Source: Clostridia bacterium (GTDB lineage Bacteria; Bacillota; Clostridia; TANB77; CAG-508). Taken from it: a stretch of 64,000 nucleotides of DNA. The stretch covers positions 1,783 through 65,782 of the forward strand of contig JAGBJN010000004.1 of the NCBI GenBank assembly GCA_017934475.1, read 5' to 3'. Positions 18,576 through 53,351 of this stretch are shown in pieces. Made by a program: the position numbers and the translations under genes. Under the pieces are notes generated by a model, which worked only from the letters and a program-made list of their open reading frames with translations, had not been told where the DNA came from and did no database searches. The number at the start of each line of letters is the position of its first letter. Positions within the stretch are counted from its first letter, which is position 1.

Positions 18576-18830
18576 CTTTTTTATCTCCTTCTTTTGCAGT
18601 TGAAATTTAATTTTTTCCTTTCCTTTATCAACCGCTATTTGTTTATACTCAAAATTTAGCATATATATAATAAAAAAAACAAGTTCATATATGTTGGAAA
18701 TAAAGGATAATATTTAATATGTACTTGCGGATATTTATTTTTAATATTAAACTTTACATTTTACTAACAATTTCATTATTTTGTTACAAAAAACTACTTT
18801 TTTAGAAATATTATTGTAATTTTTTCTTTT
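18576..18830 (-). promoter_or_regulatory. Conserved upstream leader/promoter region of giant adhesin gene, copy 2
   Basis: It has the same conserved blocks as 7872..8105. Confidence 0.4.
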
Positions 18831-27064: not shown

Positions 27065-28714
27065 TTACTCAAATGTTTCCCAATAAATATTATCTGTATC
27101 ATATGATAAAGAATTTAATTCTACATCACCATCATATATTTTATTTATGCCATTTAAATTTATAGCTTCTCTTGAATATTTAGGGCCATTTGTATTGCTT
27201 ACAGAAATATTAGCATATTCTGCTGGCATATAAAAATCTATTTTTCTTCTTCTTGAATAATCTGTTATATTATTAGCATCTTTTACTCCATATATTGCAC
27301 CACCGCTTCGTAACCAAAATACATCGTTACTTGTATTTACAGATATTTTTTCACCTGTTCTAACAATTGTATTTATGCTTTTTTCGTAATAGTAGTAAAC
27401 TCTAAATTCGTAATGATATTTTCCTCCACTTTGGCTACTATTGCACTCTACTTTGCATCCATTGGCTTGTGCTCCTGTTAAATCATATTCTTTTCCTTCT
27501 GCTGTAATAACTAACCAATTTGGATCAAAAGCATCATTTTTAGTTGCACTTTCATTTGAATTCCCACTATTATTTATTCTTTGATATAATTCTTCAATTT
27601 CTACAGGAGAAATATTATTTGCTCCTGAAATTTTATTTGAAATTAAAAAGTAGTATTCAATTACATCTACATATCCCATTTGAGCAACAAATTTATATTC
27701 TTTTTGATGCTTAGGTTTATATCCTGTAATTGCTCTTAAATTATTATTAACTTCATATCTACCGGTATCAAATCCATTAGATACAGTCATCTCAATATCT
27801 TCACTTGGCATTTCAAATGATATACCATAACCATCTTCTAATTTTGAACCATAATACATCCAACTTGTTTCTGAAGATAAATTATCAGTTCTTAAACTTA
27901 TTTTTGTACCTGGTTCTATATAAAATGTTTTTACCTTTTTTAGTCCTGTAAGTGTTAGTGAATCACTTTGCTTTATTTCTGTTCTTTCTGCATCTGTTAA
28001 ATCATATTCAGTATTATTAATTATTACTTTAGTATTTCCTATATCACTGCTTGTTTCTGTTGGCGTATAATCATTACCTGGAGTTTTATATCCACCATCA
28101 TAACCAATTATAGTAAATGTAAATTCATAAGTTCCTTCTGGTCTATTATTTTCATTTTCAGTTTTCAAATATTCTATATCTTCTGTAACAATATATCTAA
28201 TTAATTTTGTTAAATCAATTGTATTAATCTCTGTATCATTATTTATATCTGCTGATTTAAGTTCTTCAGGTTCTGTTAAAATACAATTTTCTAATCCAAT
28301 ATAATGTCTTATAAGTAAGCTTAAATCTCTTTGGTCTGATATTCCATCACCATTAATATCTCCAATAACAGACAAAACATATGGCTCAGCAGCTGACATC
28401 ATAGCATCGCCTGAAGTTATTGTTTGCTTAAATTCTGCATAATCTCCTGTATAAACAATTTCATTTGTTTTTTCAATTGTAAAATGTTTGTCACGAACTA
28501 TTTTTTTTGTTGTCCCACCATCTGTTATTGAAAATGCATTTAAAAAATCATTTGCTGATGTTCCAGGTAGTATTCTAGAAATCATGTGGTTTTCCTTATC
28601 AAGTGTATATTTAGTATTTTCAATTGTAAGTGCATTGCATATTGAAGAGGTTAATAAAACAAAAACTAAAATGAAAAATAATATTAAACTAAATTTTAAT
28701 AATTTGTTTTTCAA
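27065..28714 (-). CDS. Secreted dockerin-bearing protein with an internally duplicated C-terminal region (function unknown)
   Basis: It has a TTG start with RBS AGGAGGG and a signal peptide ending ICNA. A dockerin follows (GDINGDGISDQRDLSLLIRHYIG ... ADINNDTEINTIDLTKLIRYIV). The rest is two related ~170-aa halves (...TFYIEPGTKISLRTDN...FEMPSEDIEMTVSN / ...NTIVRTGEKISVNTSN...FYMPAEYANISVSN). Confidence 0.75.
   Translation of the reverse strand: MKNKLLKFSLILFFILVFVLLTSSICNALTIENTKYTLDKENHMISRILPGTSANDFLNAFSITDGGTTKKIVRDKHFTIEKTNEIVYTGDYAEFKQTITSGDAMMSAAEPYVLSVIGDINGDGISDQRDLSLLIRHYIGLENCILTEPEELKSADINNDTEINTIDLTKLIRYIVTEDIEYLKTENENNRPEGTYEFTFTIIGYDGGYKTPGNDYTPTETSSDIGNTKVIINNTEYDLTDAERTEIKQSDSLTLTGLKKVKTFYIEPGTKISLRTDNLSSETSWMYYGSKLEDGYGISFEMPSEDIEMTVSNGFDTGRYEVNNNLRAITGYKPKHQKEYKFVAQMGYVDVIEYYFLISNKISGANNISPVEIEELYQRINNSGNSNESATKNDAFDPNWLVITAEGKEYDLTGAQANGCKVECNSSQSGGKYHYEFRVYYYYEKSINTIVRTGEKISVNTSNDVFWLRSGGAIYGVKDANNITDYSRRRKIDFYMPAEYANISVSNTNGPKYSREAINLNGINKIYDGDVELNSLSYDTDNIYWETFE
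28187..28369 (-). other. Dockerin module (two EF-hand-like Ca-binding segments)
   Basis: Both loops fit D-x-N-x-D-x(6)-D followed by a helix (LIRHYIG / LIRYIV). Confidence 0.75.
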
Positions 28715-28766
28715 TTAATTCCCTCCTTTCAGTTTTATAAATAAAAACTATTTTTACAAAATATAT

Positions 28767-28799
28767 AACATATATGGAAAAATTTTTTCCATATATGTT
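28767..28799 (-). terminator. Palindromic hairpin downstream of the 683-aa cohesin protein gene
   Basis: It is an AACATATATGGAAAAA / TTTTTCCATATATGTT inverted repeat. Confidence 0.5.
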
Positions 28800-28819
28800 A
28801 ATATTTATTTTTTATACTT

Positions 28820-30871
28820 TTATATTCTGTTTTTTCTGTATCCTATAAAAGCTCCTACTGCAGATATAGTTAAACCACCAAATATTGCAACTAATATCAT
28901 TTCATTTGTACCAGTTTGTGGTATTTCTTTGTCTGCCTCTTTCTTTCCATCATCTTTTCCGCCGTCTTTTCCATCTTCTGCTGCATCAACAAAATCAGCC
29001 CATTTGAAATCTTCTGCTCCATAGAACATTAATGACCAACTACCTTCTGTAAGTGTTGGATATGCTTTTGATAAAGCAAATGTAACAGCCTCTTGATTTA
29101 TATATTTACCATTTTCATCATCAGCTTTTACATATAAGAAATAATATGATCCATCATCTATTTTTGATAAGTCAATAACTGATTTTCCATCAGCCGTATT
29201 ATAAGATATAGTATATACATCTTGGCTAGCACTAGTTGTTTGATCATAAATTCCACTATTAGATTTAGCATATTTTAATAAATCTGCAAATCCTGAAGAA
29301 TCTTGATTTTTAATCTTTTTCAAAATAGAATAATCTGTTATTTTGCCAACTTTTATTTCAATATTTCTATTTGCATTTGAGTTATGTGTAAATGTTGTAA
29401 CGATTTGTGTTGCTTTATTAGACATAAATGTAGCAAAAAAGCCATCACTATATTTTGGTTCTGAATATTTTGTTAGTTTATTTCCATATGTAACATATTT
29501 TTCTTCACTATTTTCTGTTTGTTCAAGTATAGAAATGTATACGTCTTGATTTAACTCTACAAATTTAGCAATTTCATTGTAGTCTTTGCAAACAAATATA
29601 CCTTTCTCACTATTATACTCAAGTTTCCAATAATTTGCACTTAATTCTGTAGCTGAAGCAGTTGGCATATTACTATTATTAGAAACCATATAATAATAAT
29701 TATGATCTTCTTTAGGTGTTACTCCAGAAATTTCAATACTAGCTTGTGATGTTCCAAATTTTTTCAATTCATATTTTGCACTTGAAAAATCTGTCCAATC
29801 TCCCTCAGGTAAATTTGGATCATCTGGATTGTTTGGATCATCTGGATCATCTGAATCTTTTGGATATACAGTTACCTGACAAGTTGCTGTTGCTGATTCT
29901 CCTCTTGCTGTTATTGTTGTTGTTCCTACACTTACTCCTGTTACAACACCTGTACTACTAACTGTTGCGATACTTGAATTACTACTTGTCCATGTTATTG
30001 TTGCACCCTTTGATGATGTTGCAGCTAGTCCTATAGTTTCACCTACTTTTACTGATGCAGTAGTTTTAACCATATTTATTGTTTCATCAGATACACCTGG
30101 ATCAACCTTTGGAAGAACAGTTACTGTGCATGTTGCTGATTTAGATTCACCTGTAGCTGTTATAACAGCAGTTCCTGCACTTTTACCTACTACAAGTCCT
30201 GAACTATTAACTGTAGCTACAGAAGTATTACTACTTGTCCATGTTATTGTTGCATTTTTTGAAGATTCTGCTCTTAATTGTACTGTTTCATTTACATTTA
30301 TTGATGCTGATGTAGGTGTAACTGTTACAGTTTCTTCTGTTGGTGTAGATCCTCCTTCAAAAGTATATGATATTGATTTATCTGTTTCATCAATTAATTC
30401 ATTTCCAACGCATCCTTGAATACCTCTAATCTTGAATGGTTTAGCATTTGCTTTTACTGAATCAGATAAATTAGATTTTACAGTAAAAGTAACAACACCG
30501 ATTACTTTATCTGTTGTAACTCCTCCTGCCATAGTAGATAATAACATATGTCCTTCACTTTCATTGCCTTCTTCTTTGTTGATTTCTATTGACCAGTTGC
30601 CTCTTCCTTCTACGTCATCGTCAGTAAGATGTTCAAATACATTTTTATCATATTCTAGATAAGCTTCTAATGTATTCATTCCAAGTTCACCCATATCGAT
30701 GTTCATTAATTTAAATTGAAGTTCAACAGTATCACCTTCAGAAATTACAGAATTTGATGGTGATTTAATTGATACATCTAAATTAAAACTATAAGCTTTT
30801 ACACAACATGGTATAATAAAAGTTAATACCAAAGTTGTAATTAATAAGATTGAAATAAATTTTTTCATCAT
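28820..30871 (-). CDS. Sortase-anchored surface protein: cohesin-like domain, two Big_2 Ig-like domains, Pro/Asp linker, ~280-aa unknown domain, IPQTG anchor
   Basis: It has a signal peptide ending CVKA and a cohesin-like domain at ~30356..30793 that aligns with the other two cohesins. Two Big_2 repeats follow (...ITWTSSN.S.ATV...G.V.G.S.GT..ITA.GES..A.C.VTV) at ~29867..30331, then the linker DSDDPDDPNNPDDPN. The C-terminus is IPQTG (28910..28924) plus a TM segment plus RKNRI. Confidence 0.7.
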   Translation of the reverse strand: MMKKFISILLITTLVLTFIIPCCVKAYSFNLDVSIKSPSNSVISEGDTVELQFKLMNIDMGELGMNTLEAYLEYDKNVFEHLTDDDVEGRGNWSIEINKEEGNESEGHMLLSTMAGGVTTDKVIGVVTFTVKSNLSDSVKANAKPFKIRGIQGCVGNELIDETDKSISYTFEGGSTPTEETVTVTPTSASINVNETVQLRAESSKNATITWTSSNTSVATVNSSGLVVGKSAGTAVITATGESKSATCTVTVLPKVDPGVSDETINMVKTTASVKVGETIGLAATSSKGATITWTSSNSSIATVSSTGVVTGVSVGTTTITARGESATATCQVTVYPKDSDDPDDPNNPDDPNLPEGDWTDFSSAKYELKKFGTSQASIEISGVTPKEDHNYYYMVSNNSNMPTASATELSANYWKLEYNSEKGIFVCKDYNEIAKFVELNQDVYISILEQTENSEEKYVTYGNKLTKYSEPKYSDGFFATFMSNKATQIVTTFTHNSNANRNIEIKVGKITDYSILKKIKNQDSSGFADLLKYAKSNSGIYDQTTSASQDVYTISYNTADGKSVIDLSKIDDGSYYFLYVKADDENGKYINQEAVTFALSKAYPTLTEGSWSLMFYGAEDFKWADFVDAAEDGKDGGKDDGKKEADKEIPQTGTNEMILVAIFGGLTISAVGAFIGYRKNRI

Positions 30872-30972
30872 TTTCTTTTTCTCCTTTTCTCTTGTTTTTA
30901 TATATTTTTACTTTTGTTTTTCAGTATTTTATACACCTTATCATTAAAAAACTGAAACACATAATATAATAA

Positions 30973-31686
30973 CTATTTAATAATTATTTTTTTATAGCGT
31001 ACATATGTATATATTCCTATTACACTAATAGTACCTACTATAAATAATAATATAACTTCATTTGTACCAGTTTGTGGTACACTACCTTCTGCAACTGTTT
31101 TATCATTTGTTTTATTTTCATTAACTTGAGGCTCTTGATTATTAATGTCAACCTGTTTCACTTCACTTGCTTCCACAACTTTATCAAATTGTAATGTTAA
31201 TGGAATATTTTTATCGACCTCATTTATTATTGCTGTACCATTATTTGTAGAAACATTTACCAATTTAACCTCTGTTTGCTTAGTTAATGTCGTACTAGTA
31301 AGATCATCTTTAACCCTTAACTTTACGCCTCCAATTTCCTGGTCATTTTTAACTCCAGCTGATAAAATCATTGCAAGCATTTTGCCTTTTTGAATTGTAT
31401 TCTCATCATTATATGTTAAAGACCAATTATTTTTACTACTGACATCATCCTGGCTAACTTTTTCAAATACTGATTCATCATATTGCAATTTAGCTTCAAG
31501 TGCGTTTATTCCATTAGTTCCAGCATTTATATCTGAAATTTTAAGTGTAATTTCAACTTCATCTCCTGGCTTTAAAGATGATTTATCAGGAGTTGCTGTT
31601 AATGTAAAACTATCAGCTAAAACAATTGTTGAAAAACATAATAACATTATACAGAGAACTACAAGTATCCCTAGCTTTTTTTTCAT
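30973..31686 (-). CDS. Sortase-anchored single-cohesin surface protein
   Basis: I prefer the start MKKKLG at 31686 (RBS GGAAGGAA) over the track start 31710. It has a signal peptide ending IVLA and a cohesin-like domain at ~31186..31614. The C-terminus is VPQTG (31066..31080) plus a TM segment plus RYKK. Confidence 0.7.
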   Translation of the reverse strand: MKKKLGILVVLCIMLLCFSTIVLADSFTLTATPDKSSLKPGDEVEITLKISDINAGTNGINALEAKLQYDESVFEKVSQDDVSSKNNWSLTYNDENTIQKGKMLAMILSAGVKNDQEIGGVKLRVKDDLTSTTLTKQTEVKLVNVSTNNGTAIINEVDKNIPLTLQFDKVVEASEVKQVDINNQEPQVNENKTNDKTVAEGSVPQTGTNEVILLFIVGTISVIGIYTYVRYKKIIIK

Positions 31687-31718
31687 TTGTTCCTTCCTTT
31701 CTATAGTCATTTAATCAT

Positions 31719-31747
31719 ATTTTAAAATATATAAACTTAAATTTCAA
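31719..31747 (-). promoter_or_regulatory. Sigma-A-type promoter for the 245-aa cohesin gene
   Basis: It reads TTGAAA-17 nt-TAAAAT on the minus strand. Confidence 0.5.
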
Positions 31748-31810
31748 CAGTTGTAACGGTAATATAATATAAATGTATAAATAAAAATATTTTTGTAATA
31801 TTTTTGTAAT

Positions 31811-31846
31811 ATAAAAAAGATTTTGCAATATTTTGCAAAATCTTTT
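31811..31846 (-). terminator. Terminator downstream of the 1079-aa dockerin/Big_2 gene
   Basis: A perfect 14-bp stem, AAAAGATTTTGCAA / TTGCAAAATCTTTT, is followed on the minus strand by a T-run. Confidence 0.75.
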
Positions 31847-31869
31847 CCTTTATTCCGTAAGGATTTTTA

Positions 31870-34800
31870 TTATTCTATACAAGTTACTACATAACATGTA
31901 CTTGCTCCTGTATACGCATTATCTTCTGGCGTTATAAGTGTAATATGAGAAGTTCCAGGTTCTCTTCCATATAAAGTTATTATACCATTATCTATATGAG
32001 CTTCTACCACATATGCATTATCATTGTGTAGTTCTACTTTATTTCCTGTCTTTTCTACTATATAAAATCTAATTTCCTGTCCAACTCTAATTGTTCCCTC
32101 ATATTCACTTAATCTTATATATCCTTCTCCTTTATTTACTCTTATTTGATATACAGCACTTCCTGAAGTATAATCATCCGTTTCTTCACTACTTACATGA
32201 ATATAAGCCACACCTTGTCCTACTGGAGTTACAGTTATTGTCGAACCACTTACACTTGCTGTTGCAACACCTGTATCAGATGTTTGAACTGTAATTTTAC
32301 CTCCTGTTGGATTTGTTACTTTAAATGTTTTTACATTTGGACATGTAGTTACTCCATAATTTTCTGATAATTCCATTGTATAATCCTCTTGATTCGATAT
32401 ACAAGTAACTGAATAAGTAGCAGATGCCTCTGTATAATAATCATCTTCTTGTGCAGTAACTGTTATTGTTGATGTTCCTGTTTTCATTCCAATAATGGAT
32501 ATTTGGTTATTAAAAATATCAGTGTCTACAACTGCCGAATTCGAATTTTTAATTTTTACACTTGTACCATGCATATTTGTAATATTAAAATAAATCATTT
32601 TCCCAACATTAACTATTCCATTTGTATCACTCAATGTTATAAATCCTGTTCCTTTATCTACTCTTATCGTGTAAGTAGCATTTCCGGCTTTATAATACTC
32701 TGTTTCTGCACTTGATATAGTAATCGTAGTTGTTCCTATTCCTTTTGGTGTTATAGTTATTGTTGACCCACTTACACTAGTTGTTGCTATTTTACTGTTC
32801 GAAGTAACAGCCATAACTCTTCCTCCAGTTGGATTTGTTACCGTAATTGTTTTTGTATTTGGATATTTTATTGTTCCACTTGTTTCTGATAATCTCATTG
32901 TATAATCTTGTTGATTTGATGAATTAGTTATGCATGTAACATTATAAACAGCTGTCGCTTCTGTAAAAGCATTATTTTCAAGTTCTCTTACCGTGATTTT
33001 AGTAGTTCCTACTCCTACTCCTGTTACTGTTACAACATTATTTTCTATTTTCGCTGTTACAACTTTTGTATCAGCAACATCAATTTCTGTTCTATTTCCA
33101 TGTTTACTTGAAATATTAAATGTAATTTTTTTATCTTTTACAACAGTTCCCTCATTTGCACTTAAAGTAATATATCCTACTCCTTTATTTACTGTAATTG
33201 TATATTCTGCAAAACCAGCTTTATATTTGTCTGTCTCTTCACTTGTTACTACTATTGTAGTTGTTCCTTTTCCTACTGGCGTTATCAAAATATTAGATTC
33301 ATTAACACTTGCTGTTGCTATATTCCCATCATAGGATAATGCTGAAATTTTGCCACCAGTTGGATTTGTTACTATAATTGTTTTTGTATTTGGGCATGTT
33401 GTTGTTCCACTTATTTCTGATAATTGCATTGTATAATCTTGTTTGTTTGTTACTGATCCTTCATTTACTGTAATTATATATGTTGCAGTACCCGATTTAT
33501 AATTTGCTGTTGCATCACTTAATACTGTAATTATTGCTGATCCTACGTTTTGTGGTATTACAGTTATTGTTGTACCACTTACCCTTGCTGTCGCTATATT
33601 ACTATTTGATGTTGCTACAGTTATTGTTCCTCCTGTTGGATTCATAATAGTAAATGTTTTTGTATTTGGAATTGATGTTACACCACGTGTTTCTGATAAC
33701 CTCATTGTATAATCTTGTTGATTATTTTGTTGATTTTGACTTGCATTATTAACTTTTATTGTGTAAGTCGCATTTCCAGCTTTATAATTTGTTGTTGCTG
33801 CACTTGACACATTAATTGTCGTTGTTCCTACTCCTTTTGGAATAATCGTTATTGTTGAATCACTAACAACTGTTGTAGCAACATTATTATTTGATGAAAC
33901 TGCCGATATTTTGCCACCAGTTGGATTTGTTACTCTAAAAGTTTTTAAATATGGATAAGTTGTTTCTCCACTTGTTTCTGACAGTTGCATTGTATAGTTT
34001 TGTTGATTTGAAGAATTTTCTATACATGTAACATTATAAACTGCAGTTGCCTCTGTATATGAATCATTTTCAGGTGCTGTAAGTGTAATTTTGGTATTTC
34101 CTGCATTTATTCCAGTTACAGTTACAAGACCATTTGATATTTTTGCATCTGCAACAAGAGCATTATCTATATGTAATTGTGTTTTATTTCCATGCTTACT
34201 TGTAACATTAAATGAAATTGTTTCATCTTTTACAACTACACCTTCCGTAGCACTTAAAGTTATATATCCTATTCCTTTATTTACCATTATAGTATATGTA
34301 GCACTTCCAGCTTTATATTTAGCTGTTTCCTCACTTGTAACTTTTATCGTTGTCGTTCCAGGTGCAATTGGAGTAATAGTTATTGTTGAACCACTTACAC
34401 TTGCTGTTGCTATATTTCCATTTGACGTAATAGCTGAAATCTTACCACCTGTTGGATTTGTTACTGTAAATATTTTTTCATTTGGGCATGTTGTTTCTCC
34501 ACTTGTTTCTGATAAACTCATTGTATAATCTTGTTTTTCTATATTTGGGAAAGTACCATTTAAAATATATCTTATTAAATAAGTAATATCTATTGGATTT
34601 ATAACATCATCATCATAAAAATCAGCAGATTTTAATAAGTAACCATCTGTAATTACGTAATTACTCAATCCTATATAATGTCTAATTAATGCAGATAAAT
34701 CAATAATATTTGTTTCACCGTCTTCACTAATATCTCCTATTACAGAAGCCTTATAAATTCTATCTGCATTCATACTATATCTTCCATCTCCTACATCATT

Positions 34801-35109
34801 AATCGAATGAAGGTTTTTTACAGCAAGCATTCCAGATTTTACAATGCCACTAGATACTTCCTCGTATCCACTTTCTCCAAACTTATATAATTTAATTACA
34901 TCTGTATCAGAAGTTTTTAATTTAGTAGTAATATTCGTAAGAAACTCTGACGCATTAGTTTTTGGTTCTATTCTATAAACAATTTTCGGATTTTTATCAT
35001 CGTCAAATTTATAATTAGAACTTGCAGCATAAATTTCTTTTGTTAATAAATTAGTACATATTATAACAATGGAAAAAAATAGTATAGTTATAAATATTTT
35101 TTTCTTCAT
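31870..35109 (-). CDS. Secreted dockerin-bearing protein with an array of ~10 Ig-like (Big_2-type) domains
   Basis: After a signal peptide comes an N-terminal ~90-aa module related to that of the 549-aa protein, then a dockerin. Six units begin Q(Q)DYTM.LSE.SG...; four of them are followed by a second Ig-like unit (KG.GYITLS...VYNVTCI). Confidence 0.75.
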   Translation of the reverse strand: MKKKIFITILFFSIVIICTNLLTKEIYAASSNYKFDDDKNPKIVYRIEPKTNASEFLTNITTKLKTSDTDVIKLYKFGESGYEEVSSGIVKSGMLAVKNLHSINDVGDGRYSMNADRIYKASVIGDISEDGETNIIDLSALIRHYIGLSNYVITDGYLLKSADFYDDDVINPIDITYLIRYILNGTFPNIEKQDYTMSLSETSGETTCPNEKIFTVTNPTGGKISAITSNGNIATASVSGSTITITPIAPGTTTIKVTSEETAKYKAGSATYTIMVNKGIGYITLSATEGVVVKDETISFNVTSKHGNKTQLHIDNALVADAKISNGLVTVTGINAGNTKITLTAPENDSYTEATAVYNVTCIENSSNQQNYTMQLSETSGETTYPYLKTFRVTNPTGGKISAVSSNNNVATTVVSDSTITIIPKGVGTTTINVSSAATTNYKAGNATYTIKVNNASQNQQNNQQDYTMRLSETRGVTSIPNTKTFTIMNPTGGTITVATSNSNIATARVSGTTITVIPQNVGSAIITVLSDATANYKSGTATYIITVNEGSVTNKQDYTMQLSEISGTTTCPNTKTIIVTNPTGGKISALSYDGNIATASVNESNILITPVGKGTTTIVVTSEETDKYKAGFAEYTITVNKGVGYITLSANEGTVVKDKKITFNISSKHGNRTEIDVADTKVVTAKIENNVVTVTGVGVGTTKITVRELENNAFTEATAVYNVTCITNSSNQQDYTMRLSETSGTIKYPNTKTITVTNPTGGRVMAVTSNSKIATTSVSGSTITITPKGIGTTTITISSAETEYYKAGNATYTIRVDKGTGFITLSDTNGIVNVGKMIYFNITNMHGTSVKIKNSNSAVVDTDIFNNQISIIGMKTGTSTITVTAQEDDYYTEASATYSVTCISNQEDYTMELSENYGVTTCPNVKTFKVTNPTGGKITVQTSDTGVATASVSGSTITVTPVGQGVAYIHVSSEETDDYTSGSAVYQIRVNKGEGYIRLSEYEGTIRVGQEIRFYIVEKTGNKVELHNDNAYVVEAHIDNGIITLYGREPGTSHITLITPEDNAYTGASTCYVVTCIE
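34561..34743 (-). other. Dockerin module
   Basis: The sequence is GDISEDGETNIIDLSALIRHYIG ... ADFYDDDVINPIDITYLIRYIL. The second loop is partly degenerate. Confidence 0.7.
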
Positions 35110-39943: not shown

Positions 39944-42900
39944 TTATTCTTCAGTTGTTTCTGCAATAAGTTCTGGTTGATCTTGTACTTCTTGCTCTGT
40001 ACTAATATGAGTATTTCTATATTTATTTAATCCAGTTCCGGCAGGAATTAATTTACCTATAATAACGTTTTCTTTTAGTCCTAATAATTCATCTACCTTA
40101 CCTTTAACAGCTGCTTCTGTAAGAACTCTTGTTGTCTCTTGGAATGAAGCTGCTGATAAGAAACTATCTGTTGCAAGAGATGCTTTTGTAATTCCAAGTA
40201 ATACTCTCTTACCTGTTGCTGGTCTCTTTCCTTCTTCAACTGCTTGTTTATTAATATCTTCAAATTCATACATATCAACTAATGAACCTGCAAATAAATG
40301 TGTATCTCCATTATCTTCAACTCTAACTTTCTTAAGCATTTGTCTACCGATAACTTCAATATGTTTATCATTGATATCAACACCTTGGTTTCTATAAACT
40401 TTTTGTACTTCTTGTACAAGATAATTATAAACACCTTCTGGTCCTTTGATTGCAAGTAATTCATTAGGGTTAATTGAACCTTCTGTAAGTGGTTGACCTG
40501 CTACTACTTCGTCTCCATCTTTTACTTTTAGTTTAGAACCAAATGGAATAACATAAGTTTTAGCATCATCTTTAGATTTAACAACAACGCTCTTTCTCTT
40601 CTTGTCTTCTGTAGTTTTTACTTTACCGTCAATTTCAGAGATTATTGCAACACCCTTAGGTTTTCTAGCTTCGAATAATTCCTCGACTCTAGGAAGACCT
40701 TGAGTAATATCGGCAACACCGGCAACACCACCAGAGTGAATAGTTCTCATTGTAAGCTGTGTACCAGGCTCACCTATTGATTGAGCTGCTATAATACCAA
40801 CTGTTTCACCTATACTTGCCTCTTGTCTACTTGCTAATCCCATACCATAACATTTAGCACAAACACCATGTTTTGTTCTACATCCGAAAACTGAACGAAC
40901 TCTAACTGATTCAATTCCTGCTTCAACAATCTTGTCTGCAGTTTTATCTGTTATTAATGTGTTTGTATCTACTATAACTTCCTTAGTATTTGGATCTATA
41001 ATATCTTCTAATGGATAACGTCCTATTAATCTTTCTTGTAATGTTTCAATTACTTGATTTCCATCTTTAATTGCTGATAATTCAATTCCATCATGAGTTC
41101 CACAATCTTTATCTCTAATGATAATATCTTGTGATACATCAACTAATCTTCTTGTTAAATATCCAGAGTCAGCTGTTCTTAACGCTGTATCTGATAAACC
41201 TTTACGAGCACCATGGGCTGAAATAAAGTATTCAAGAGCATCTAGTCCCTCTCTGAATGATGACTTGATTGGAATCTCAACTGTTTTACCAGTTGTTGAA
41301 GCCATAAGTCCACGCATTCCGGCAATTTGTTTTAATTGGTCTAAGTTACCACGGGCACCAGAATCAGACATTATATAGAATGGGTTAGATTCGTCAAAGT
41401 TTTCTTTCATAGCAACCTTAACATCATCTGTTGCTTTTTCCCAGATTTTGATTACTGATTGATATCTTTCATCTTCAGTAATTAAACCTCTTCTATATTG
41501 TTTTGATACATTTTCTACTTCTTTTGCTGCTTCTTCAAGTATTGTATTCTTAGCTTCTGGAACTTTAGCATCATCTATAGATACTGTAATACCAGATGTT
41601 GTTGAATTCTTAAATCCAGATGCTTTGATATAATCAAGTACTTCAGCAGTTTTTGCTAAACCATGTTTATCTATACATCTTTCAATTATTTTTCCTAATT
41701 TTTTCTTATTAGTTACAAAGTTGATTTCTGGTTCAAATTCGTTTTCAGGATCACTTCTGTCAACAAAACCTAAGTCTTGTGGAATACCTTTATTGAACAT
41801 TATTCTACCAACTGTTGTTTCAACTTTCTTATGTCTTTCATTTCCTTCTTCATCTACTTTGCTCATTCTAACAAATATTTTAGCATGTAATCCTACTTCT
41901 TTGTTAGCATAAGCCATTTCAGCTTCTTCAGGAGATGAGAAGTAATTTCCTTCACCTTTTTCACCTTTAACATCCATTGTAATGTAGTAGTTTCCAAGGA
42001 TCATATCTTGTGATGGTACTGTAACTGGTTTACCATCTTGTGGTTTTAATAAGTTATTTACAGAAAGCATTAAATATCTTGATTCTGCTTGTGCTTCTGG
42101 TGATAATGGAACGTGAATAGCCATTTGGTCACCATCGAAGTCAGCATTGAACGCTGTACAAACTAATGGGTGTAACTTAATTGCTCTACCTTCAACAAGT
42201 ACTGGTTCGAAACTTTGAATACCAAGTCTGTGAAGTGTTGGAGCACGGTTTAACATTACTGGATGATCTTTAATAACATCATCTAATATATCCCATACTT
42301 CTGGTCTTAATCTTTCTACCATTCTTTTTGCATTTTTGATATTATGTGCTATTCCTCTACCTACTAATTCTTTCATAACAAATGGTTTGAATAATTCAAC
42401 AGCCATTTCTTTTGGAAGACCGCATTGATAAATTTTAAGTTCAGGTCCTACAACGATAACTGAACGTCCAGAGTAGTCAACACGTTTTCCAAGTAAGTTT
42501 TGACGGAAACGTCCTTGTTTACCTTTAAGCATATCTGATAATGATTTTAATGGTCTATTACCAGCACCTGTAACAGGTCTTCCACGTCTTGAGTTATCTA
42601 TTAAGGCATCTACTGATTCTTGAAGCATTCTTTTTTCATTTCTCTTAATGATTTCTGGTGCTCCAAGTTCGATTAATCTTTTTAATCTGTTATTTCTGTT
42701 TATAACTCTTCTGTATAAATCATTTAAGTCTGATGTAGCAAATCTACCACCATCTAATTGGACCATAGGTCTTAATTCTGGTGGAATAACTGGAATTGCA
42801 TTCATTATCATCCATTCAGGTCTATTTCCTGATAATCTAAATGATTCTACAGTATCTAATCTTTTTACTAGTTTAGCTTTCTTTTGCTCACTAGCTCCTT

Positions 42901-43489
42901 CTAATTCTTTCTTTAATTGAGCTGATAATTTTTCAACATCAACTTCTTTTAATAATTTTTCAAGAGCTTCTGCTCCCATTTCTGCTTTGAAGCTTCCTGC
43001 TCCATATTTTTCTACTGCATCATGATATTCTTTTTCTGTTAAAACTTGGCATTTTAATAAATCAGATGTACCTTTATCAGTAACAATGTATGATGCAAAA
43101 TAAACTATTTTTTCTAGATTTCTTGGTGAAATATCAAGCATTAAAGCAATTCTTGATGGTATTCCTTTGAAATACCAAATGTGAGCAACTGGAGCAGCAA
43201 GTTCAATGTGTCCCATTCTCTCACGTCTTACTTTAGATTTTGTTACTTCAACACCGCATCTATCGCAAACAATACCTTTATAACGAACTCTTTTATATTT
43301 ACCACAATGGCATTCCCAGTCTTTTGTTGGTCCAAATATTCTTTCACAGAATAAACCATCTTTTTCTGGCTTTAAAGTTCTGTAGTTAATAGTTTCAGGT
43401 TTTTTAACTTCACCTTTTGACCATTCTCTTATTTGCTCATCAGATGCTAATCCTATTTTAATTTTATCAAATATTTCTAATTCATCCAC
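39944..43489 (-). CDS. rpoC: DNA-directed RNA polymerase subunit beta-prime
   Basis: It has the catalytic motif NADFDGDQM and zinc-finger cysteines (CHCGKY...CDRCGVEV), and is 1181 aa. The start is GTG with a GGGGG RBS. Confidence 0.97.
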
Positions 43490-47605: not shown

Positions 47606-47635
47606 ATTATACCTTAAAATCCTACGGCTTGTCAA
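47606..47635 (-). promoter_or_regulatory. Sigma-A-type promoter about 265 nt upstream of rpoB
   Basis: It reads TTGACA-18 nt-TATAAT on the minus strand. Confidence 0.55.
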
Positions 47636-47666: not shown

Positions 47667-47697
47667 ACAAAAAAAGATGGAAAATGAATTCCATCTT
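47667..47697 (-). terminator. Terminator of cassette copy 1
   Basis: The stem AAGATGGAA / TTCCATCTT has a 6-nt loop and is followed by a T-run on the minus strand. It is nearly identical to the element at 50512..50543. Confidence 0.8.
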
Positions 47698-47717
47698 AAA
47701 ATTATTTTTTTATTATT

Positions 47718-48389
47718 CTAATTCCATATTGCTGGGCGATAAGTTACTCCTGCAGCGCCAGACCCATTTCCAGCTGATCCCCATCCTTCAAATCCTAAGA
47801 TGCTTGCTTTTCTTAAACCTATTTGTGGACCATACTCTACTTTAGCATTATACCATCCTGCAGTTTCTCCATAGGCTTTTCCAACATTTTCAGAAGAGTT
47901 ATATGTGCTTCCAAGTACATCTACATATCTACTATTTGTTTCTTCATATAACTTTGAACAATAATCGTTAGAAGATGTCCCTGTTTTATATGCTGCGACA
48001 AAAGTAGCCCAATCCCCATTGTATGATCCTAAATTAATAACACCACTTGCATTCCCTGTTGTTGTATAATAATTTTTTTCATTAATTGAAGTTGTATCTC
48101 CGGTTGCATTTCTTACTGTTCCATAAGAGCTTAGTCCTAAATAAGCTGTTGCTCCCCAATCACGAGCTGTAGACATATGTGGATCCAAACTATTATCACC
48201 TAAAGTAGAAGTTTGATGTCTCATATCAAGGCAATATTGAAAAGCATTATTTGCAGTTACATTTCCTTGTCTTGTTGTACCTGCTTTTATTTCAATTGCT
48301 GCATATGACTGCCCTGATAAAGTTATACTAAATGCAGTACATAAAACTATCAATAATAAATTAACTTTTATAACTTTTTTTATATTCAT
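47718..48389 (-). CDS. Small secreted protein S1 (223 aa), partner of the pilin-like repeat protein; unknown function
   Basis: I prefer the start MNIKK at 48389 (RBS AAAGGAGAG). The signal peptide ends SYA/AIE. It shares with S2 the motifs NDAFQYC.DMR, LDPH.STARDW.A.AYLGLSSYGTVR, TTGN.SGV.N.G, GETAGWY and the terminal TYRPAIWN. Confidence 0.8.
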   Translation of the reverse strand: MNIKKVIKVNLLLIVLCTAFSITLSGQSYAAIEIKAGTTRQGNVTANNAFQYCLDMRHQTSTLGDNSLDPHMSTARDWGATAYLGLSSYGTVRNATGDTTSINEKNYYTTTGNASGVINLGSYNGDWATFVAAYKTGTSSNDYCSKLYEETNSRYVDVLGSTYNSSENVGKAYGETAGWYNAKVEYGPQIGLRKASILGFEGWGSAGNGSGAAGVTYRPAIWN

Positions 48390-48432
48390 ATTTTTCTCTC
48401 CTTTGTATATCATAAGATTTCAATAATTGGTA

Positions 48433-50421
48433 TTAAGTATTCACCCAGCTAGGATCAAACTTGCTCATCCATATTCCTTTTAATTCTGTTGTCGTTCCAT
48501 CTTCATTTGTTTTTGTAAATGCTGGATGTACTATCATTCCTTCTTTTAATGAATCTCCATATGTTTCTTTATCATATGGTTTATTTTCTAAATCTATAAA
48601 TAAAACATCTATTTCCTGGCTTGCTTGACTCACACTATATGCAAATCTTGGTATCCATACCCACCATGCTTCCAAATTATTTGCATTTGTTTTTACATTC
48701 GCCCAAACTTTATTCGAATAATCATACCATTCATTATTTTCATTTGCTGTATTAAGGTCAGCATCTTTTAATGCAGGTCCTTCTGTAAATGTATTTGTTT
48801 CTACATCAAAGTATTCTATATAAGTATTATTTTCATCAAATCCAGACATATCAGGTGCATAGCAATTTCCAGAATTAGCTTTACGATCTGCATTCGTTCC
48901 TATGCTTGGATCAAATTTACTCATCCATATTCCTTTTAGTTCTGTTTTTGTTCCATCAGCATTTGTTTTAGTAAATGCTGGATGAACTATCATTCCTTCT
49001 CTTAACTCATTTCCATACGTTTCTTTATCATATGGTTTATTTTTTAAATCTATAAATATAACATTCATTTCTTGGCTTGCAGGAGTAGCAGTATAAGCAT
49101 ACCTTGGAATCCATACCCACCATGCTTCTATTCCGTTTGCACTTGTTTTTACATTTGCCCAAACCTTATTTGAATAATCATACCATCTCTTGTCGTTATT
49201 CACTGTACTTAAGTTAGCATCCTTTATTAATGGGCCTTCTGTAAACAAATTTGTTTCTATATCAAAATATTCTATATATGTATTATTTTCATCAAACCCA
49301 GACATATCAGGTGCATAGCATTCTCCTGAACTTAATGTATGATTAAAGTTTGTTGTATTGGATGGATCAAATTTACTCATCCATATTCCTTGAAGTTCTT
49401 TAACTTTTTTTACAGTAACTGTATCCTCCACAGTAATACGTTCTGTTTCTGTAAATGCTGGATGAATTATGTATGTTTCATCATTTATTGTTATTGTACC
49501 ATCATTATTTACCGTATATTTATCTTCATACCTTGTTCCAATTGGCTTATTATCCATATCTATAAATACAACATCAACTGGAGGTTGTGAGCTTGTTGTT
49601 CCAACTTTGTACGCATATCTTGGTATCCATACCCACCAACTTTCTAACCCATTTGCATTTGTTTGAACATTTCCCCATATATCACTGTTATATCCATCCA
49701 AAACATATATTTTATCTTCTTCTGTAAAATTGCTTTTTCTACCATTAGTTATATACTCTTCTATCGGTATATATTTAATATCTGCAAAATCCATTGTGTT
49801 ATAATATACAACTTTGCTATGATTTTTATCAAATCCTGTTAAATCTGGTTTTATCCAACCAATATCACCATCATATGCAATTTCAACCTCTGTACTTGCT
49901 TTATTGTTTATTGTTATAACTTCTCCAGAGCCTTCAACACCCAAACCTAATAGTGTATGGTGCCATTTTCCTCTAAAATTTTCTCCTTCTACATCATAAA
50001 TTTGTAAATCACTCAAATCTATAATATATTTATGTGATACATTTGACTTAATCTTTGTTTTGTCAATCTCATATAATTCCAAACTATCAATATCCAAATT
50101 TGAATCTTCTTTTATTGTTCTTATTTCTGCTATCAAAGTATCTTTAAATTCGCTTTTGTTTGCCTCTCCTACTATTGGTAATTTTTCAATTACTGTCCTA
50201 TTTTGCATATTTATAATGTCGTCTTGTTCACAATTTGTCCAATAAAGCATTGTCTTTTCTTGGATTTCAGAAAAATTTGATTTATATCCTGCCTCAACAG
50301 CTCTACTTATCAATCCATCTTCGCCAAGAACCAATGTTAATGTTACACCTGCTAAAATCAATAAAATAATAATTGTAATTACAAGCGCAACAAGTGTAAT
50401 ACCTTTTTTATTATTTTTCAT
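48433..50421 (-). CDS. Protein P1 (662 aa): atypical prepilin-like N-terminus plus three ~140-165-aa repeats; unknown function
   Basis: The N-terminus is MKNNKKG/ITLVALVITIIILLILAGVT...GEDGLISRA. The repeats are at ~49360..49860, 48907..49320 and 48454..48864. Each repeat has PD[LM][ST]GFD, WANVKT.ANG.EAWWVWIPR[YF]AY, HPAFT and GIWMSKFDPS. Confidence 0.85.
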   Translation of the reverse strand: MKNNKKGITLVALVITIIILLILAGVTLTLVLGEDGLISRAVEAGYKSNFSEIQEKTMLYWTNCEQDDIINMQNRTVIEKLPIVGEANKSEFKDTLIAEIRTIKEDSNLDIDSLELYEIDKTKIKSNVSHKYIIDLSDLQIYDVEGENFRGKWHHTLLGLGVEGSGEVITINNKASTEVEIAYDGDIGWIKPDLTGFDKNHSKVVYYNTMDFADIKYIPIEEYITNGRKSNFTEEDKIYVLDGYNSDIWGNVQTNANGLESWWVWIPRYAYKVGTTSSQPPVDVVFIDMDNKPIGTRYEDKYTVNNDGTITINDETYIIHPAFTETERITVEDTVTVKKVKELQGIWMSKFDPSNTTNFNHTLSSGECYAPDMSGFDENNTYIEYFDIETNLFTEGPLIKDANLSTVNNDKRWYDYSNKVWANVKTSANGIEAWWVWIPRYAYTATPASQEMNVIFIDLKNKPYDKETYGNELREGMIVHPAFTKTNADGTKTELKGIWMSKFDPSIGTNADRKANSGNCYAPDMSGFDENNTYIEYFDVETNTFTEGPALKDADLNTANENNEWYDYSNKVWANVKTNANNLEAWWVWIPRFAYSVSQASQEIDVLFIDLENKPYDKETYGDSLKEGMIVHPAFTKTNEDGTTTELKGIWMSKFDPSWVNT

Positions 50422-50477
50422 TTGTTCCCCTTTCTCTATTTTCTCTTACGCATACACGCATTTCGTAAACTATAAAA

Positions 50478-50506
50478 ATTATATACATATTCATTTTTTA
50501 TTTCAA
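50478..50506 (-). promoter_or_regulatory. Consensus-like sigma-A promoter of cassette copy 1
   Basis: It reads TTGAAA-17 nt-TATAAT on the minus strand. Confidence 0.65.
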
Positions 50507-50511
50507 GTATT

Positions 50512-50543
50512 TTAAAAAAAAGATGGAAAATAAATTCCATCTT
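50512..50543 (-). terminator. Terminator of cassette copy 2
   Basis: It has the stem AAGATGGAA / TTCCATCTT plus a T-run on the minus strand. Confidence 0.8.
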
Positions 50544-50562
50544 AAAAGCATATTTTATTCTA

Positions 50563-51243
50563 TTAATTCCATATTGCTGGGCGATAGGTAGTAGCATTAT
50601 TAGCCTCACCATATGTTACTGGAGTTGGATCGTTCGTATATCCAAATGTTCCCATTCTAACCAATACAACATGATCATCCCAAGTAGATGATGAAGCTGC
50701 ACTTGAATACCATCCAGCAGTCTCTCCATCTGCCATACCTATATTTTTACCAGGCAAATTTAGTACATCAACATATTTATTATATGTATTTAAATAAAGT
50801 TTTGATACTGATCCATTTTGTGGACGCTCAACTATCCTATTAGCAACATACGTATATTGATTTCCTCCTAATGCTGCATTATGACCAAAATTCATTACTC
50901 CACTTATATTTCCCGTTGTTGTATGATTTCTTGATTCTATTTGAATGTTATCTCCATTTTGAGCTCTAACTGTTCCATAAGAACTTAATCCTAAATACGC
51001 AACCGCAGCCCAATCTCTTGCTGTAGAAAGATGTGGATCTAAAGAATTGTTTCCTAATGTTGAACTTTGATATCTCATATCATAGCAATATTGAAATGCA
51101 TCATTCATTGAAATACTTCTGTGTGGAGATGTTGTAGGTACAACTTGTATAGCAGCATTTGAATTATTCACTAAAAGCACGTTTAATGTAGCATATGCAA
51201 AAATTGATATTATTAATATTTTTATAAAACTCTTCACTTTCAT
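50563..51243 (-). CDS. Small secreted protein S2 (226 aa), paralog of S1
   Basis: It has RBS AAAGGAGAG and a signal peptide ending SNA/AIQ, with the same conserved motifs and TYRPAIWN terminus as S1. Confidence 0.8.
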   Translation of the reverse strand: MKVKSFIKILIISIFAYATLNVLLVNNSNAAIQVVPTTSPHRSISMNDAFQYCYDMRYQSSTLGNNSLDPHLSTARDWAAVAYLGLSSYGTVRAQNGDNIQIESRNHTTTGNISGVMNFGHNAALGGNQYTYVANRIVERPQNGSVSKLYLNTYNKYVDVLNLPGKNIGMADGETAGWYSSAASSSTWDDHVVLVRMGTFGYTNDPTPVTYGEANNATTYRPAIWN

Positions 51244-51263
51244 ATTTTCTCTCCTTTGTTTTT

Positions 51264-53264
51264 TTAATTATTTATCCAACTTGGCTCATATTTACTCATC
51301 CAGATTCCTTTTAGTTCTTTTGTTTTCGTTACTTCTTCTCCATTTTCTTCTTCTGTCCAAATTTCTGTAAATGCTGGATGAACTATCATTCCAGGTTTTA
51401 ATTCATTTCCCATATTTGAATCATATGGCTTATTTTCTAAATTAACAAATATAACACCTGTATCTTGTCCACCTTGATTAACAATATAAGCATATCTTGG
51501 TATCCATACCCACCATGCTTCTATTCCATTTGCCATCGTTTTTATATTTGCCCATATTTTATTATTATAACTATAAAGTGTATATGTTTCATTTTCATAT
51601 GTTATTTGTCTTTGCATTCCTCCTGCTTTATAGTCTTTTAATAAAACTTCTCTAGATTTACTAAAATCTTCGTTATAGTATACCATCCAACTATTATTTT
51701 CATCAAAGCCTTCAATATCTGGTGCGTAGCACTCTCCTGAGCTTGCATTTCTTGTTTCATTTGTTACATTACTTGGTTCATATTTACTCATCCAAATTCC
51801 TTTTAGTTTTTTTACTATTGTTCCATCAACTGTTTCATTAAATGCAGGATGTACTATCATTCCACTTGGCAATCTATCTCCATAACTTTCTTTATCATAT
51901 GGTTTATCATTTTCATCAACAAAAATAATATCTACTTCTTTTGCTCCTTGACTAATACTATAAGCATAACGTGGTATCCATACCCACCAACATTCAATGT
52001 CATTTGCTTTTGTTTTTACATTTGCCCATACTTTGTTTGAATAATCATACCAATTTGTATTATTATTTTCATTATCCATATTAGCATCAGCAAGTTTTGG
52101 TCCTTCTGTAAATGTATTATTTTCTATATCAACATATTCAATCCATGTATTATTTTTATCAAATCCGCTTATATCTGGTGGATAACATTTTCCTGATGTA
52201 GCAACCCTTGTTTCATTTGTAAGATTACTTGGTTCATATTTACTCATCCATATTCCTTGAAGAGTTTTCGTTTTTGTTTCTGCCTCCTCACCTTCACCAA
52301 CTGTCCAAGTCTCTGTGAAAGCAGGTTGAATAGTATATTCTTCAAACTCTTCATCTGTTATTTGAGCATCATCTTTAAGTAAACGATTATTTTGTGTATC
52401 TAAAAATATTATATCCATAGGAGGATTTGAACTTGTACCATTTATTTTATAAGCATATCTTGGTATCCATACCCACCATGCCTCTATTCCATTTGAATTT
52501 GTCTTTACATTTGCCCATCTTTTATCAACATAGTCATCTAAAATATATTCTTCACCTTCATATGTTATTTTACTTTGTCTACCATCATTTATGTAGTTTT
52601 CTATTGGAACTTCATGTGATTTTGAAAAATCAGAATTATAATATACTAAAAATGTATGATGTAAATCAAATCCTGTTAAATCAGGTTTTAACCATCCTAT
52701 ATTTCCATTCCAAAAACTTTCTTCTGATGTTTGTGCTGGTTTTCCAATTACAGTTTGAGTGTTTTCTCCAGAACCTTCAACTCCCAAACCTCTTAATGTA
52801 TGATGCCATTTTCCTCTAAATTCTTCACCATCTACATCATATATTTGTAAATCTGCCAAATCTATAATGTATTTATGCGATACATTTGAGTTTATTTTTG
52901 TTTTATCAATTTCATATAATTCCAAACTATTAACGTCCAAATTTGAATCTTCTCTTACAGCCTTAATTTCAGCAATCAATGTACTTTTAAAGCTACTTTT
53001 ATTAGCCTCACCTAATATCGGTAATTTTTCAAGTACTGTCCTATTTTGCATATTTATAATGTCATCTTGCTCAGAATTTGTCCAATATAACATGGTTTTT
53101 TCTTGTATTTCAGAAAAGTTTGATTTATATCCAGCCTCTTTTGCTCTCGAAATCAATCCATCTTCGCCAAGAACTAATGTTATTGTTACACCTGCTAAAA
53201 TCAATAAAATAATAATTGTAATAACAAGTGCAACAAGTGTAATACCTTTTTTATTATTTTTCAT
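51264..53264 (-). CDS. Protein P2 (666 aa), paralog of P1: atypical prepilin-like N-terminus plus three repeats
   Basis: The first 35 aa are nearly identical to P1. The repeats carry WANVKT..NGIEAWWVWIPRYAY, HPAF and GIWMSKYEPS. Confidence 0.85.
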   Translation of the reverse strand: MKNNKKGITLVALVITIIILLILAGVTITLVLGEDGLISRAKEAGYKSNFSEIQEKTMLYWTNSEQDDIINMQNRTVLEKLPILGEANKSSFKSTLIAEIKAVREDSNLDVNSLELYEIDKTKINSNVSHKYIIDLADLQIYDVDGEEFRGKWHHTLRGLGVEGSGENTQTVIGKPAQTSEESFWNGNIGWLKPDLTGFDLHHTFLVYYNSDFSKSHEVPIENYINDGRQSKITYEGEEYILDDYVDKRWANVKTNSNGIEAWWVWIPRYAYKINGTSSNPPMDIIFLDTQNNRLLKDDAQITDEEFEEYTIQPAFTETWTVGEGEEAETKTKTLQGIWMSKYEPSNLTNETRVATSGKCYPPDISGFDKNNTWIEYVDIENNTFTEGPKLADANMDNENNNTNWYDYSNKVWANVKTKANDIECWWVWIPRYAYSISQGAKEVDIIFVDENDKPYDKESYGDRLPSGMIVHPAFNETVDGTIVKKLKGIWMSKYEPSNVTNETRNASSGECYAPDIEGFDENNSWMVYYNEDFSKSREVLLKDYKAGGMQRQITYENETYTLYSYNNKIWANIKTMANGIEAWWVWIPRYAYIVNQGGQDTGVIFVNLENKPYDSNMGNELKPGMIVHPAFTEIWTEEENGEEVTKTKELKGIWMSKYEPSWINN

Positions 53265-53322
53265 TTGTGCTCCTTTCCTTATTTTCCCTTACGCATACAC
53301 GTGATTCATAATTCTAAATAAA

Positions 53323-53351
53323 ATTATATACATAATTGTATTTTATTTCAA
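53323..53351 (-). promoter_or_regulatory. Consensus-like sigma-A promoter of cassette copy 2
   Basis: It reads TTGAAA-17 nt-TATAAT on the minus strand. Confidence 0.65.

Follow-up and report, generated by a model that had tools for sequence, protein, structure and literature searches.

Two tandem two-gene cassettes, each of about 2.85 kb, lie on the minus strand directly upstream of rpoB in the 64-kb stretch of a Clostridia metagenome-assembled genome (MAG) analysed here (contig JAGBJN010000004.1; hereafter the window). Each cassette encodes a large protein with a pilin-like N-terminus and three repeats (P), followed by a small secreted partner (S) with a predicted lectin-like core of the formylglycine-generating enzyme (FGE) type. 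One P repeat and S correspond to the two consecutive modules, N and C, of a unit that is encoded as a single chain in more than 4,000 relatives. We propose, with roughly even confidence, that each cassette specifies a two-piece surface adhesin in which S would dock in trans on the pilin-like P.

The correspondence rests on natural fusions. An exhaustive search with a hidden Markov model of the S alignment returned 1,080 representative proteins, mostly stand-alone and about 220 aa long, some of them giant with several S-like stretches. In the giant relatives a P-repeat-like stretch stands directly before every S-like stretch, as in the N-C-N-C proteins P0274, P0277 and P0198. The N part of the fused unit reads WAN...VWIPRYAY...HPAF...G.W..KFE and leads through a short linker to the C part, which reads IKPN...D.HLMKNSEWGA.AYL.HS.YG...TGN.TGV.DM.GG..EYV...ETSGWY...RGG...FR.VI. 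A profile built from six natural fused units matched the P repeats of the window at profile positions 25-159 (domain E 1e-6 to 1e-11) and S1 and S2 at positions 156-351 (E 3e-11 and 3e-12, respectively), and it matched nothing else in the window. Profile-profile alignment (hhalign) placed P repeats 1-3 on columns 18-148 of the fused unit (probability 99.2-99.4%, E 9e-20 to 1e-21) and the S family on columns 162-408, up to the C-terminus (199 columns, probability 99.5%, E 5e-23). Together, therefore, the P repeat and S cover one fused unit and do not overlap.

The fused family comprises more than 4,242 protein clusters, a typical member having 500-610 aa and one unit. Among 398 fetched proteins the architectures were N-C (116), NNN (88), NN (22) and NNNN (9); C occurred alone in 113, plus 19 in which a single C module was reported as two hits. 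In multi-unit proteins N and C alternate 1:1, save for occasional doubled profile hits, and are joined by a short conserved linker. All single-chain relatives are hypothetical, unannotated proteins of uncultured Clostridia/Bacillota MAGs; many carry the same pilin-like N-terminus as P, others a different signal anchor. The window form shares with them the N and C modules, often the N-terminus, and the organism group. It differs by gene fission and by the multiplication of N to two to four copies, whereas the relatives are fused 1:1. The original prediction, made from the letters of the window, had proposed that one fold is divided between P and S. A split of one unit is supported by its single-chain form in the relatives; the pieces, as discussed below, are an accessory module and a core and not half folds.

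P and S genes also remain together across genomes. At metagenomic P loci the next gene was S-like in 10/10 cases (P identity down to 30%, S E 1e-24 to 1e-98), although the surrounding genes were different in every locus examined. In GTDB species-representative genomes S lies within 2 kb of P in all 37 evaluable split-type loci, directly downstream in 35 and upstream in two, and one locus has two S genes. These genomes are all MAGs of uncultured Clostridia/Bacillota, from the guts of humans, rabbits, chickens, sheep, goats and mice. The neighbourhood of P-like and S-like genes, which had been named as a check of the split, is therefore found in both sets. The variant arrangements are a single P followed by two tandem S genes (locus L104, 2367-3933) and S upstream of P (L130, 2196-5170; L162, 475-4662).

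The features of the two cassettes and of the genes that follow them are listed below, in the direction of transcription.

53323..53351, minus strand: promoter of cassette 2, TTGAAA-17-TATAAT, 11/12 consensus matches.
51264..53264, minus strand: P2, 666 aa, predicted pilin-like scaffold with three N modules (open reading frame (ORF); 64% identity to P1; three matches to the N part of the fused-unit profile).
50563..51243, minus strand: S2, 226 aa, predicted Sec-secreted C module with an FGE-type lectin-like core (ORF; fused-unit profile positions 156-351, E 3e-12).
50520..50543, minus strand: terminator of cassette 2, a 9-bp stem and then a T run.
50478..50506, minus strand: promoter of cassette 1, TTGAAA-17-TATAAT, 11/12 consensus matches.
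48433..50421, minus strand: P1, 662 aa (ORF).
49927..50421, minus strand: P1 residues 1-165, class III-like signal peptide (MKNNKKG|ITLVALVITIIILLILAGV) and putative pilin-like globular module (profile, NCBIfam, AlphaFold2 (AF2) model).
49366..49866, minus strand: P1 N module 1, about aa 186-352 (hhalign against the fused unit: probability 99.2%, E 9e-20).
48910..49338, minus strand: P1 N module 2, about aa 362-504 (hhalign: 99.4%, E 1e-21, columns 18-148).
48433..48882, minus strand: P1 N module 3, about aa 514-662, with the stop codon (hhalign: 99.4%, E 1.7e-21).
47718..48389, minus strand: S1, 223 aa, predicted Sec-secreted C module with an FGE-type lectin-like core (ribosome-binding site and ATG at 48389).
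47674..47697, minus strand: terminator of cassette 1, near-identical to that of cassette 2.
47606..47635, minus strand: rpoB promoter, outside the cassette, TTGACA-18-TATAAT, 12/12 consensus matches.
43621-47334/47391, minus strand: rpoB, the next gene after the cassettes.
39944-43489, minus strand: rpoC, after rpoB.

The cassette promoters are of the sigma-70 type and rank second and third in the region, behind that of rpoB. About 57 nt of leader separate promoter and P gene, the P-to-S gap is 20 nt in cassette 2 and 43 nt in cassette 1, and CAAAGGAGAGAAAA is the ribosome-binding site ahead of both S1 and S2; an alternative S1 start at 48413 (231-aa ORF) is probably not used. This layout agrees with what had been read from the sequence beforehand: a near-consensus promoter in each copy, the same five-part order with P of 662/666 aa and S of 223/226 aa set 20-43 nt apart, and near-identical terminators (50543-50520 and 47697-47674). 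The GC-rich 14-mer CGTGTATGCGTAAG that had been singled out is indeed present in both leaders (53301-53288 and 50458-50445), but we rejected it as a special element because the surrounding stretch is itself 83-87% identical between the copies; it has no Rfam match, and neither an Rfam match nor a tRNA was found anywhere in the window.

Direct repeats spaced 2,837-2,873 nt apart (mostly 2,843-2,854) confirm the tandem duplication upstream of rpoB, and the observation is real and non-random. The copies are old. P1 and P2 are 89% identical in residues 1-165 and 56% in the repeats, and S1 and S2 are 48% identical, with differences scattered along the whole gene. At the nucleotide level identity falls from 83-87% (promoter, leader and first 165 P codons) to 53-75% (repeats) and to a minimum of 47% in the 3' half of S. 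Assemblies of the same organism contain a third diverged cassette elsewhere (P0004 and a 236-aa S-like gene), giving three diverged cassettes in the genome, two of them inside the window. The combination of conserved anchors and divergent heads across the three suggests several ligand specificities in the gut habitat.

One short stretch departs from the gradient. The 3' ends of the S genes share 23 identical nucleotides, TATCGCCCAGCAATATGGAATTA (47719-47741 and 50564-50586), in the most diverged part of the genes (about 47% nucleotide identity), and these encode the invariant YRPAIWN. The identity may result from purifying selection; it may also reflect gene conversion, or a recombination or homing signal.

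In both P1 and P2 the three repeats that had been marked by motifs were recovered, with three copies each of WWVWIPR[YF]AY, [HQ]PAF and GIWMSK[FY][DE]PS per protein. All three N modules of P keep the invariant set W.W.PR..Y...F...G.W..K, the same as in the fused forms. S likewise is a signal-peptide protein ending in TYRPAIWN, as first described; the signal peptide would be cut after SxA (in S2 at ...SNA|AIQVV). Its core motifs are LDPHLST.RDWGA.AYLGLS.YG…TTGN.SGV…TYRPAIWN. The S family conserves its mature N-terminus, its b1/a1 block and the [FY]RP[VA]IWN at its end, and two loops of S1 are hypervariable (aa 121-131 and aa 181-215), the second varying more, and carrying more indels, than any other part of the family. 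Of the 33 columns that differ among three close S homologues, 24 belong to these two loop regions.

The S gene appears to be frameshifted just before the conserved C-terminal strand in two unrelated loci. At L004/L005 (8034-8738) the C-terminus reads RSRSVLWVMYIPSSYLE in place of ..FRPVIWN, and at L088 (7027-7828) S falls into two ORFs, a main one of about 230 aa and a short one on the 3' side. These could be assembly errors, pseudogenisation or phase variation.

As had been stated at the outset, neither protein can be assigned to a characterised family. Pfam and NCBIfam searches with P1, P2, S1 and S2 gave only sub-threshold N_methyl matches on P and none on S. The FGE-sulfatase model PF03781 has no match in any of the four proteins at E up to 1, and 0/120 scanned members of the S family match it. 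PDB searches with phmmer and with profiles, including S profiles of 13 and 120 sequences, returned nothing meaningful for P or S.

A relationship emerges through the fused relatives. Four of six (P0279, P0280, P0390 and P0395) score 25.4-31.3 bits with PF03781, above its cut-off of 23.3, and the other two are sub-threshold; on the fused relatives the matches are confined to profile positions ~131-220. Against the PDB, the fused-unit profile gave a weak match to one chain, TaqVP (5vf4; E 0.027), in an alignment that spans HPAF..(9)..W.G.F and HLM.N.EW...G..D..GN.WEW. The lectin domain of TaqVP begins at residue 112, at HLMTNAEW, and residues 1-111 wrap around it (10.1101/432187). Mapped onto TaqVP, S would hold the whole lectin core (b1/a1 to b5) with a short lead-in, and the P repeat would be the accessory N-terminal part. 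S thus probably contains a complete lectin core and, by transitive evidence, S and the fused C module would belong to the FGE-sulfatase/FGE-type C-type-lectin superfamily.

The original prediction had likened the P repeats to the N-terminal part of the FGE fold and S to its C-terminal part. For P this is not borne out. Human FGE and 80 bacterial relatives, 81 formylglycine-generating enzymes in all, were aligned, and hhalign was used to compare the N module and P repeat 2 with the first 62 columns, for the N-terminal half of the Pfam domain (V.IP.G.F.MG ... F.I.KYEVT); at E 0.5-0.8 there is no statistical similarity, and the likeness of motifs remains a lead only. With the full unit only the GN..WEW motif aligned to the same set (E 0.011). 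For S the claim stands in part, through the PF03781 matches on fused C modules and the TaqVP match, while S itself has no direct match. To speak of half a fold is an overstatement, because by the TaqVP mapping the core lies wholly in S.

If the cassette encodes a docked adhesin, the pilin-like helix of P would hold it in the membrane or in a fibre resembling a pilus, and P would display three beta-rich N modules. S would be exported via Sec and lose its signal peptide, and the mature protein, an FGE-type C-type-lectin-like core, would bind non-covalently to the N modules, at most three S to each P, rebuilding the N-C unit. Likely contacts on S would be the conserved mature N-terminus AIEIKPG and the invariant C-terminal strand TYRPAIWN. 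The hypervariable loops before the last strand would form the ligand-binding face, at the same position as the variable region of the lectin folds of diversity-generating retroelements (DGRs). Docking, stoichiometry, pilus incorporation and the adhesin role are what we infer from these features. The conserved anchor with divergent heads, the three cassettes, and the nearby MucBP/SpaA adhesins and cohesin/dockerin genes fit a role in gut adhesion. A further and more tentative idea, possible although we would not expect it, is that a separately secreted head snaps onto three docking modules outside the cell and that heads and scaffolds are exchangeable among the three cassettes, which would give a multivalent combinatorial adhesin without DNA-diversifying machinery.

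Several results weigh against a docked, pilin-borne adhesin. The link of P and S to FGE and lectin folds is transitive, and neither protein matches these directly in Pfam or the PDB. For S, the AF2 model built on a 13-sequence alignment has a mean predicted local distance difference test score (pLDDT) of 40.7, too poor for a fold search or for recognising a lectin fold (b1 paired with b5, two helices and a b2-b4 sheet). P was modelled with a mean pLDDT of 79.9, and its repeats alone, without S, reach about 80-90; since they are modelled confidently without S, the repeats may be autonomous domains. The Foldseek comparison that had been suggested was run with the full P model, and it found nothing in the PDB or BFVD at E below 1e-3, a search that the multi-domain model may have blunted. 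There is one S gene per three N modules, so that full occupancy would need unequal expression. As for the pilin, the residue at position +5 is not Glu, 43 of 49 P homologues having Ala there, four Ser and one Thr; Pfam N_methyl (PF07963) scores 18.4 and 18.2 bits on P1 and P2, under its cut-off of 21.2; and neither a prepilin peptidase nor an assembly ATPase or platform protein was found in the window or within 5-10 kb of any cassette.

The main rival reading, which we consider rather unlikely but take seriously, is that P and S share a process without forming a stable complex. The N modules would then be autonomous, S would be a free lectin-like factor, for instance one that bridges or binds matrix, and the fusions would simply join neighbouring domains. 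Such an arrangement accommodates the confident model of P without S, a TaqVP core that is complete from residue 112 with an accessory N-terminal region, the failure to detect homology between the N module and the N-terminal half of FGE, and a gene ratio of three N to one C. It sits less well with the strict pairing in the fused proteins, where N and C alternate 1:1 across a short conserved linker, and with the near-universal adjacency of P and S although contexts change. S is conserved at its extreme mature N-terminus and at its C-terminus, and the N modules of fused and split forms keep the same invariant residues; both observations argue against this rival.

The docked adhesin also depends on what the N-terminus of P is. 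It begins with a basic leader whose last residue is Gly; a hydrophobic helix of 21 residues and a small globular module of pilin-like type follow. Across 49 P homologues having this region the leader spans 6-40 residues, with Gly (40 homologues) or Ala (nine) at position -1, and a nearly invariant ITL[IV]ALVITII[IV]LLILAGV follows. The first 30 residues are the most conserved part of the P family, which is otherwise 30-60% identical. P has the features of a class III signal peptide, a hydrophilic leader to Gly/Ala and about 21 hydrophobic residues that start a long helix, and fits the published definition except for Glu5 (PMC8179133); both Glu at +5 and a curated-threshold N-methylation match (PF07963/IPR012902) are absent. 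Pfam N_methyl matches 13/51 members of the P family at E below 0.01. With a profile of P residues 1-175, the five best PDB matches are all type IV pilins, weak and mostly on the helix: Streptococcus sanguinis PilE1 (8pfb; E 0.004), two Geopilin chains, MshA and PilA. NCBIfam GspG matches 10/14 P family members (best E 2e-5), again weakly and mostly on the helix. The AF2 model of the N-terminal part has helices at 5-32 and 37-71, then strands, with pLDDT of about 90. Because of the class III-pattern leader and the pilin matches in the PDB and NCBIfam, P is, as judged from its sequence, best described as a modular pilin-like protein. The atypical prepilin-like N-terminus first noticed is accordingly a class III-like signal peptide that lacks Glu5.

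Among the single-chain relatives, an N-C protein at L157 (4198-5853) has a canonical type IV pilin signal, MKKRGFTLIELLAVIVILAIIA, with Glu5 present (KRG|FTLIELL), and links the N-C unit to bona fide pilin N-termini. Its contig is labelled Muribaculaceae, an odd label for the N-C family. Another class of N-terminus is found in P0294, P0283, P0390 and P0278, in which a signal anchor runs to ...GGSLAYYNW or ...GTYAWFTW and is followed by a domain of about 170 aa. We take this class to recall SipW-dependent TasA/camelysin-type signals.

P could instead be merely a bitopic membrane protein whose signal anchor resembles a pilin and is never processed or polymerised, so that an S-P unit would reside at the membrane or cell wall. 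We regard this as improbable. The Ala that replaces Glu5 in 43/49 homologues, the N_methyl score under the Pfam cut-off and the lack of pilus genes near any cassette are in its favour. The anchor is nonetheless the most conserved 30 residues of the protein, its variable-length basic leader to G/A is the class III pattern (PMC8179133), pilins or pseudopilins account for all of its best matches in the PDB and NCBIfam, and the relative at L157 carries a canonical GFTLIE signal.

It is very improbable that the N-C unit is an FGE/EgtB-type enzyme, an oxidase or sulfoxide synthase acting on a surface or secreted substrate, as the Pfam FGE-sulfatase matches on the fused relatives might suggest. Those matches are limited to profile positions 131-220, and the closest relative with a solved structure, a DGR variable protein, is not an enzyme. 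We compared S with the human FGE sequence, whose cysteine pair (SYMCHRSYC) was verified against 1y1e/2aii. The equivalent region of S (residues 181-215 in S1) contains no Cys and is hypervariable, so the search for FGE-type Cys-oxidising residues that had been recommended finds no counterpart of the catalytic cysteines in S. The N-C unit is, on these sequence features, a predicted binding module and not an enzyme.

Least probable of all is that S is a DGR target or phage-derived, with a C-terminal variable region rewritten by mutagenic retrohoming: the hypervariable segment just before the invariant C-terminal strand recalls TaqVP, TvpA and Mtd, and both S genes end in the same 23 nt, yet neither S 3' end has a template repeat in the window beyond those 23 nt, a simple Y[AVIL]DD reverse-transcriptase screen of the window picked out the two giant adhesin ORFs and nothing else, no reverse-transcriptase domain figures in the Pfam annotation of genes at the 10 metagenomic loci, and S1 and S2 differ along their entire length.

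The position next to rpoB had been taken as an argument that the cassettes are functional. We rejected this adjacency as meaningful. It is incidental, because it is not conserved: the third paralogue and all other loci lie elsewhere, in unrelated contexts. rpoB has its own promoter at 47635-47606 and is therefore transcribed independently of the cassettes. It is not preceded by rplJ-rplL here, and its promoter lies ~215-270 nt upstream of two candidate start codons.

Other surface proteins are encoded in the window, all on the minus strand. The gene at 8343-18662 encodes a giant surface protein of 3,439 aa with SpaA-like prealbumin-fold domains and five MucBP (mucin-binding) domains, and that at 3-7991 another of more than 2,663 aa, which continues past the window start and has SpaA-like domains and a GLUG motif; both are probably gut-mucus adhesins. 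A surface-assembly cluster at 27065-35109 includes genes for a 683-aa Big_2 protein, a 245-aa cohesin protein and two dockerin proteins, one of 549 aa and one of 1,079 aa that also has a T2SS-T3SS_pil_N domain; it is a cohesin-dockerin system in a gut Clostridia MAG of 29% G+C. At other loci, P-S cassettes stand beside genes for a Cadherin-like and dockerin protein and for a 1,846-aa CLIPPER-domain protein (L003, 4918-5982; L086, 2211-7751). A trio of CmpB, GGDEF response-regulator and DUF2752 genes recurs in these two loci, after the surface-protein genes.

What is new here is a modular pilin-like adhesin, as we propose it, whose FGE-type lectin unit is split over two genes and whose docking module is triplicated. 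It belongs to a very large family, of more than 4,000 clusters, that has no Pfam model and is labelled hypothetical throughout. The family appears restricted to uncultured gut Clostridia/Bacillota of humans, rabbits, chickens, ruminants and mice. A domain grammar can now be given for it, in which a pilin-like N-terminus or a signal anchor is followed by an N module and then by a C module that is lectin-like and of the FGE type; it points to surface binding. The split form is a natural gene fission between accessory module and predicted lectin core, with the accessory part multiplied and the linkage strictly kept. If the pieces reassemble outside the cell, they would offer a new route to multivalent pilus or surface adhesins and a ready two-component docking pair. 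Either way, colonisation factors of an uncultured gut lineage become testable with recombinant proteins.

The pilin side of the cassette resembles the modular type IV pilins of S. sanguinis, PilB with a vWA module and PilC with a lectin module (PMC8179133). Shared features are a class III-type signal peptide and small pilin module with modules grafted behind, a monoderm host and, for P by prediction, adhesion. Unlike these pilins, P lacks Glu5, stays under curated thresholds and has no pilus machinery nearby; its grafts are three undescribed N modules, and the lectin-like core would be on a separate secreted protein.

A parallel to the two-gene arrangement is the minor pilin CofB of enterotoxigenic Escherichia coli with its operon-encoded secreted partner CofJ, whose flexible N-terminal peptide plugs into the complete H-type lectin domain of the CofB trimer (PMC6048534). 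TcpB and TcpF of Vibrio cholerae are likewise a minor pilin and a secreted partner of type IVb pili (PMC9565799). Both pairs share with P and S a large pilin-like protein and a Sec-signal secreted protein in the same operon, and in both the secreted protein binds the distal domain of the pilin and mediates attachment. The likeness to these pairs is an analogy only, as no sequence relationship was seen or tested, and in P-S it is the secreted partner that would itself be the lectin-like core. The P-S pair further differs from CofB-CofJ in having one chain with three putative docking modules, and in being a stand-alone two-gene cassette of Gram-positive gut Clostridia.

With the FGE superfamily (TaqVP 5vf4, TvpA and human FGE 1y1e) the C module shares D.HL..N.[DE]WGA..YL, GN..G..D/N..G and the terminal [FY]R.[VA]I strand, and with its lectin-fold proteins a variable surface before the last strand. 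TaqVP and the N-C unit both have, ahead of the core, an accessory N-terminal region with an HPAF...W.G.F-like motif. In contrast to that superfamily, S and P fall under Pfam and PDB thresholds, the catalytic cysteines are absent and the window shows no DGR. Core and accessory N region are encoded as separate polypeptides, and N is triplicated.

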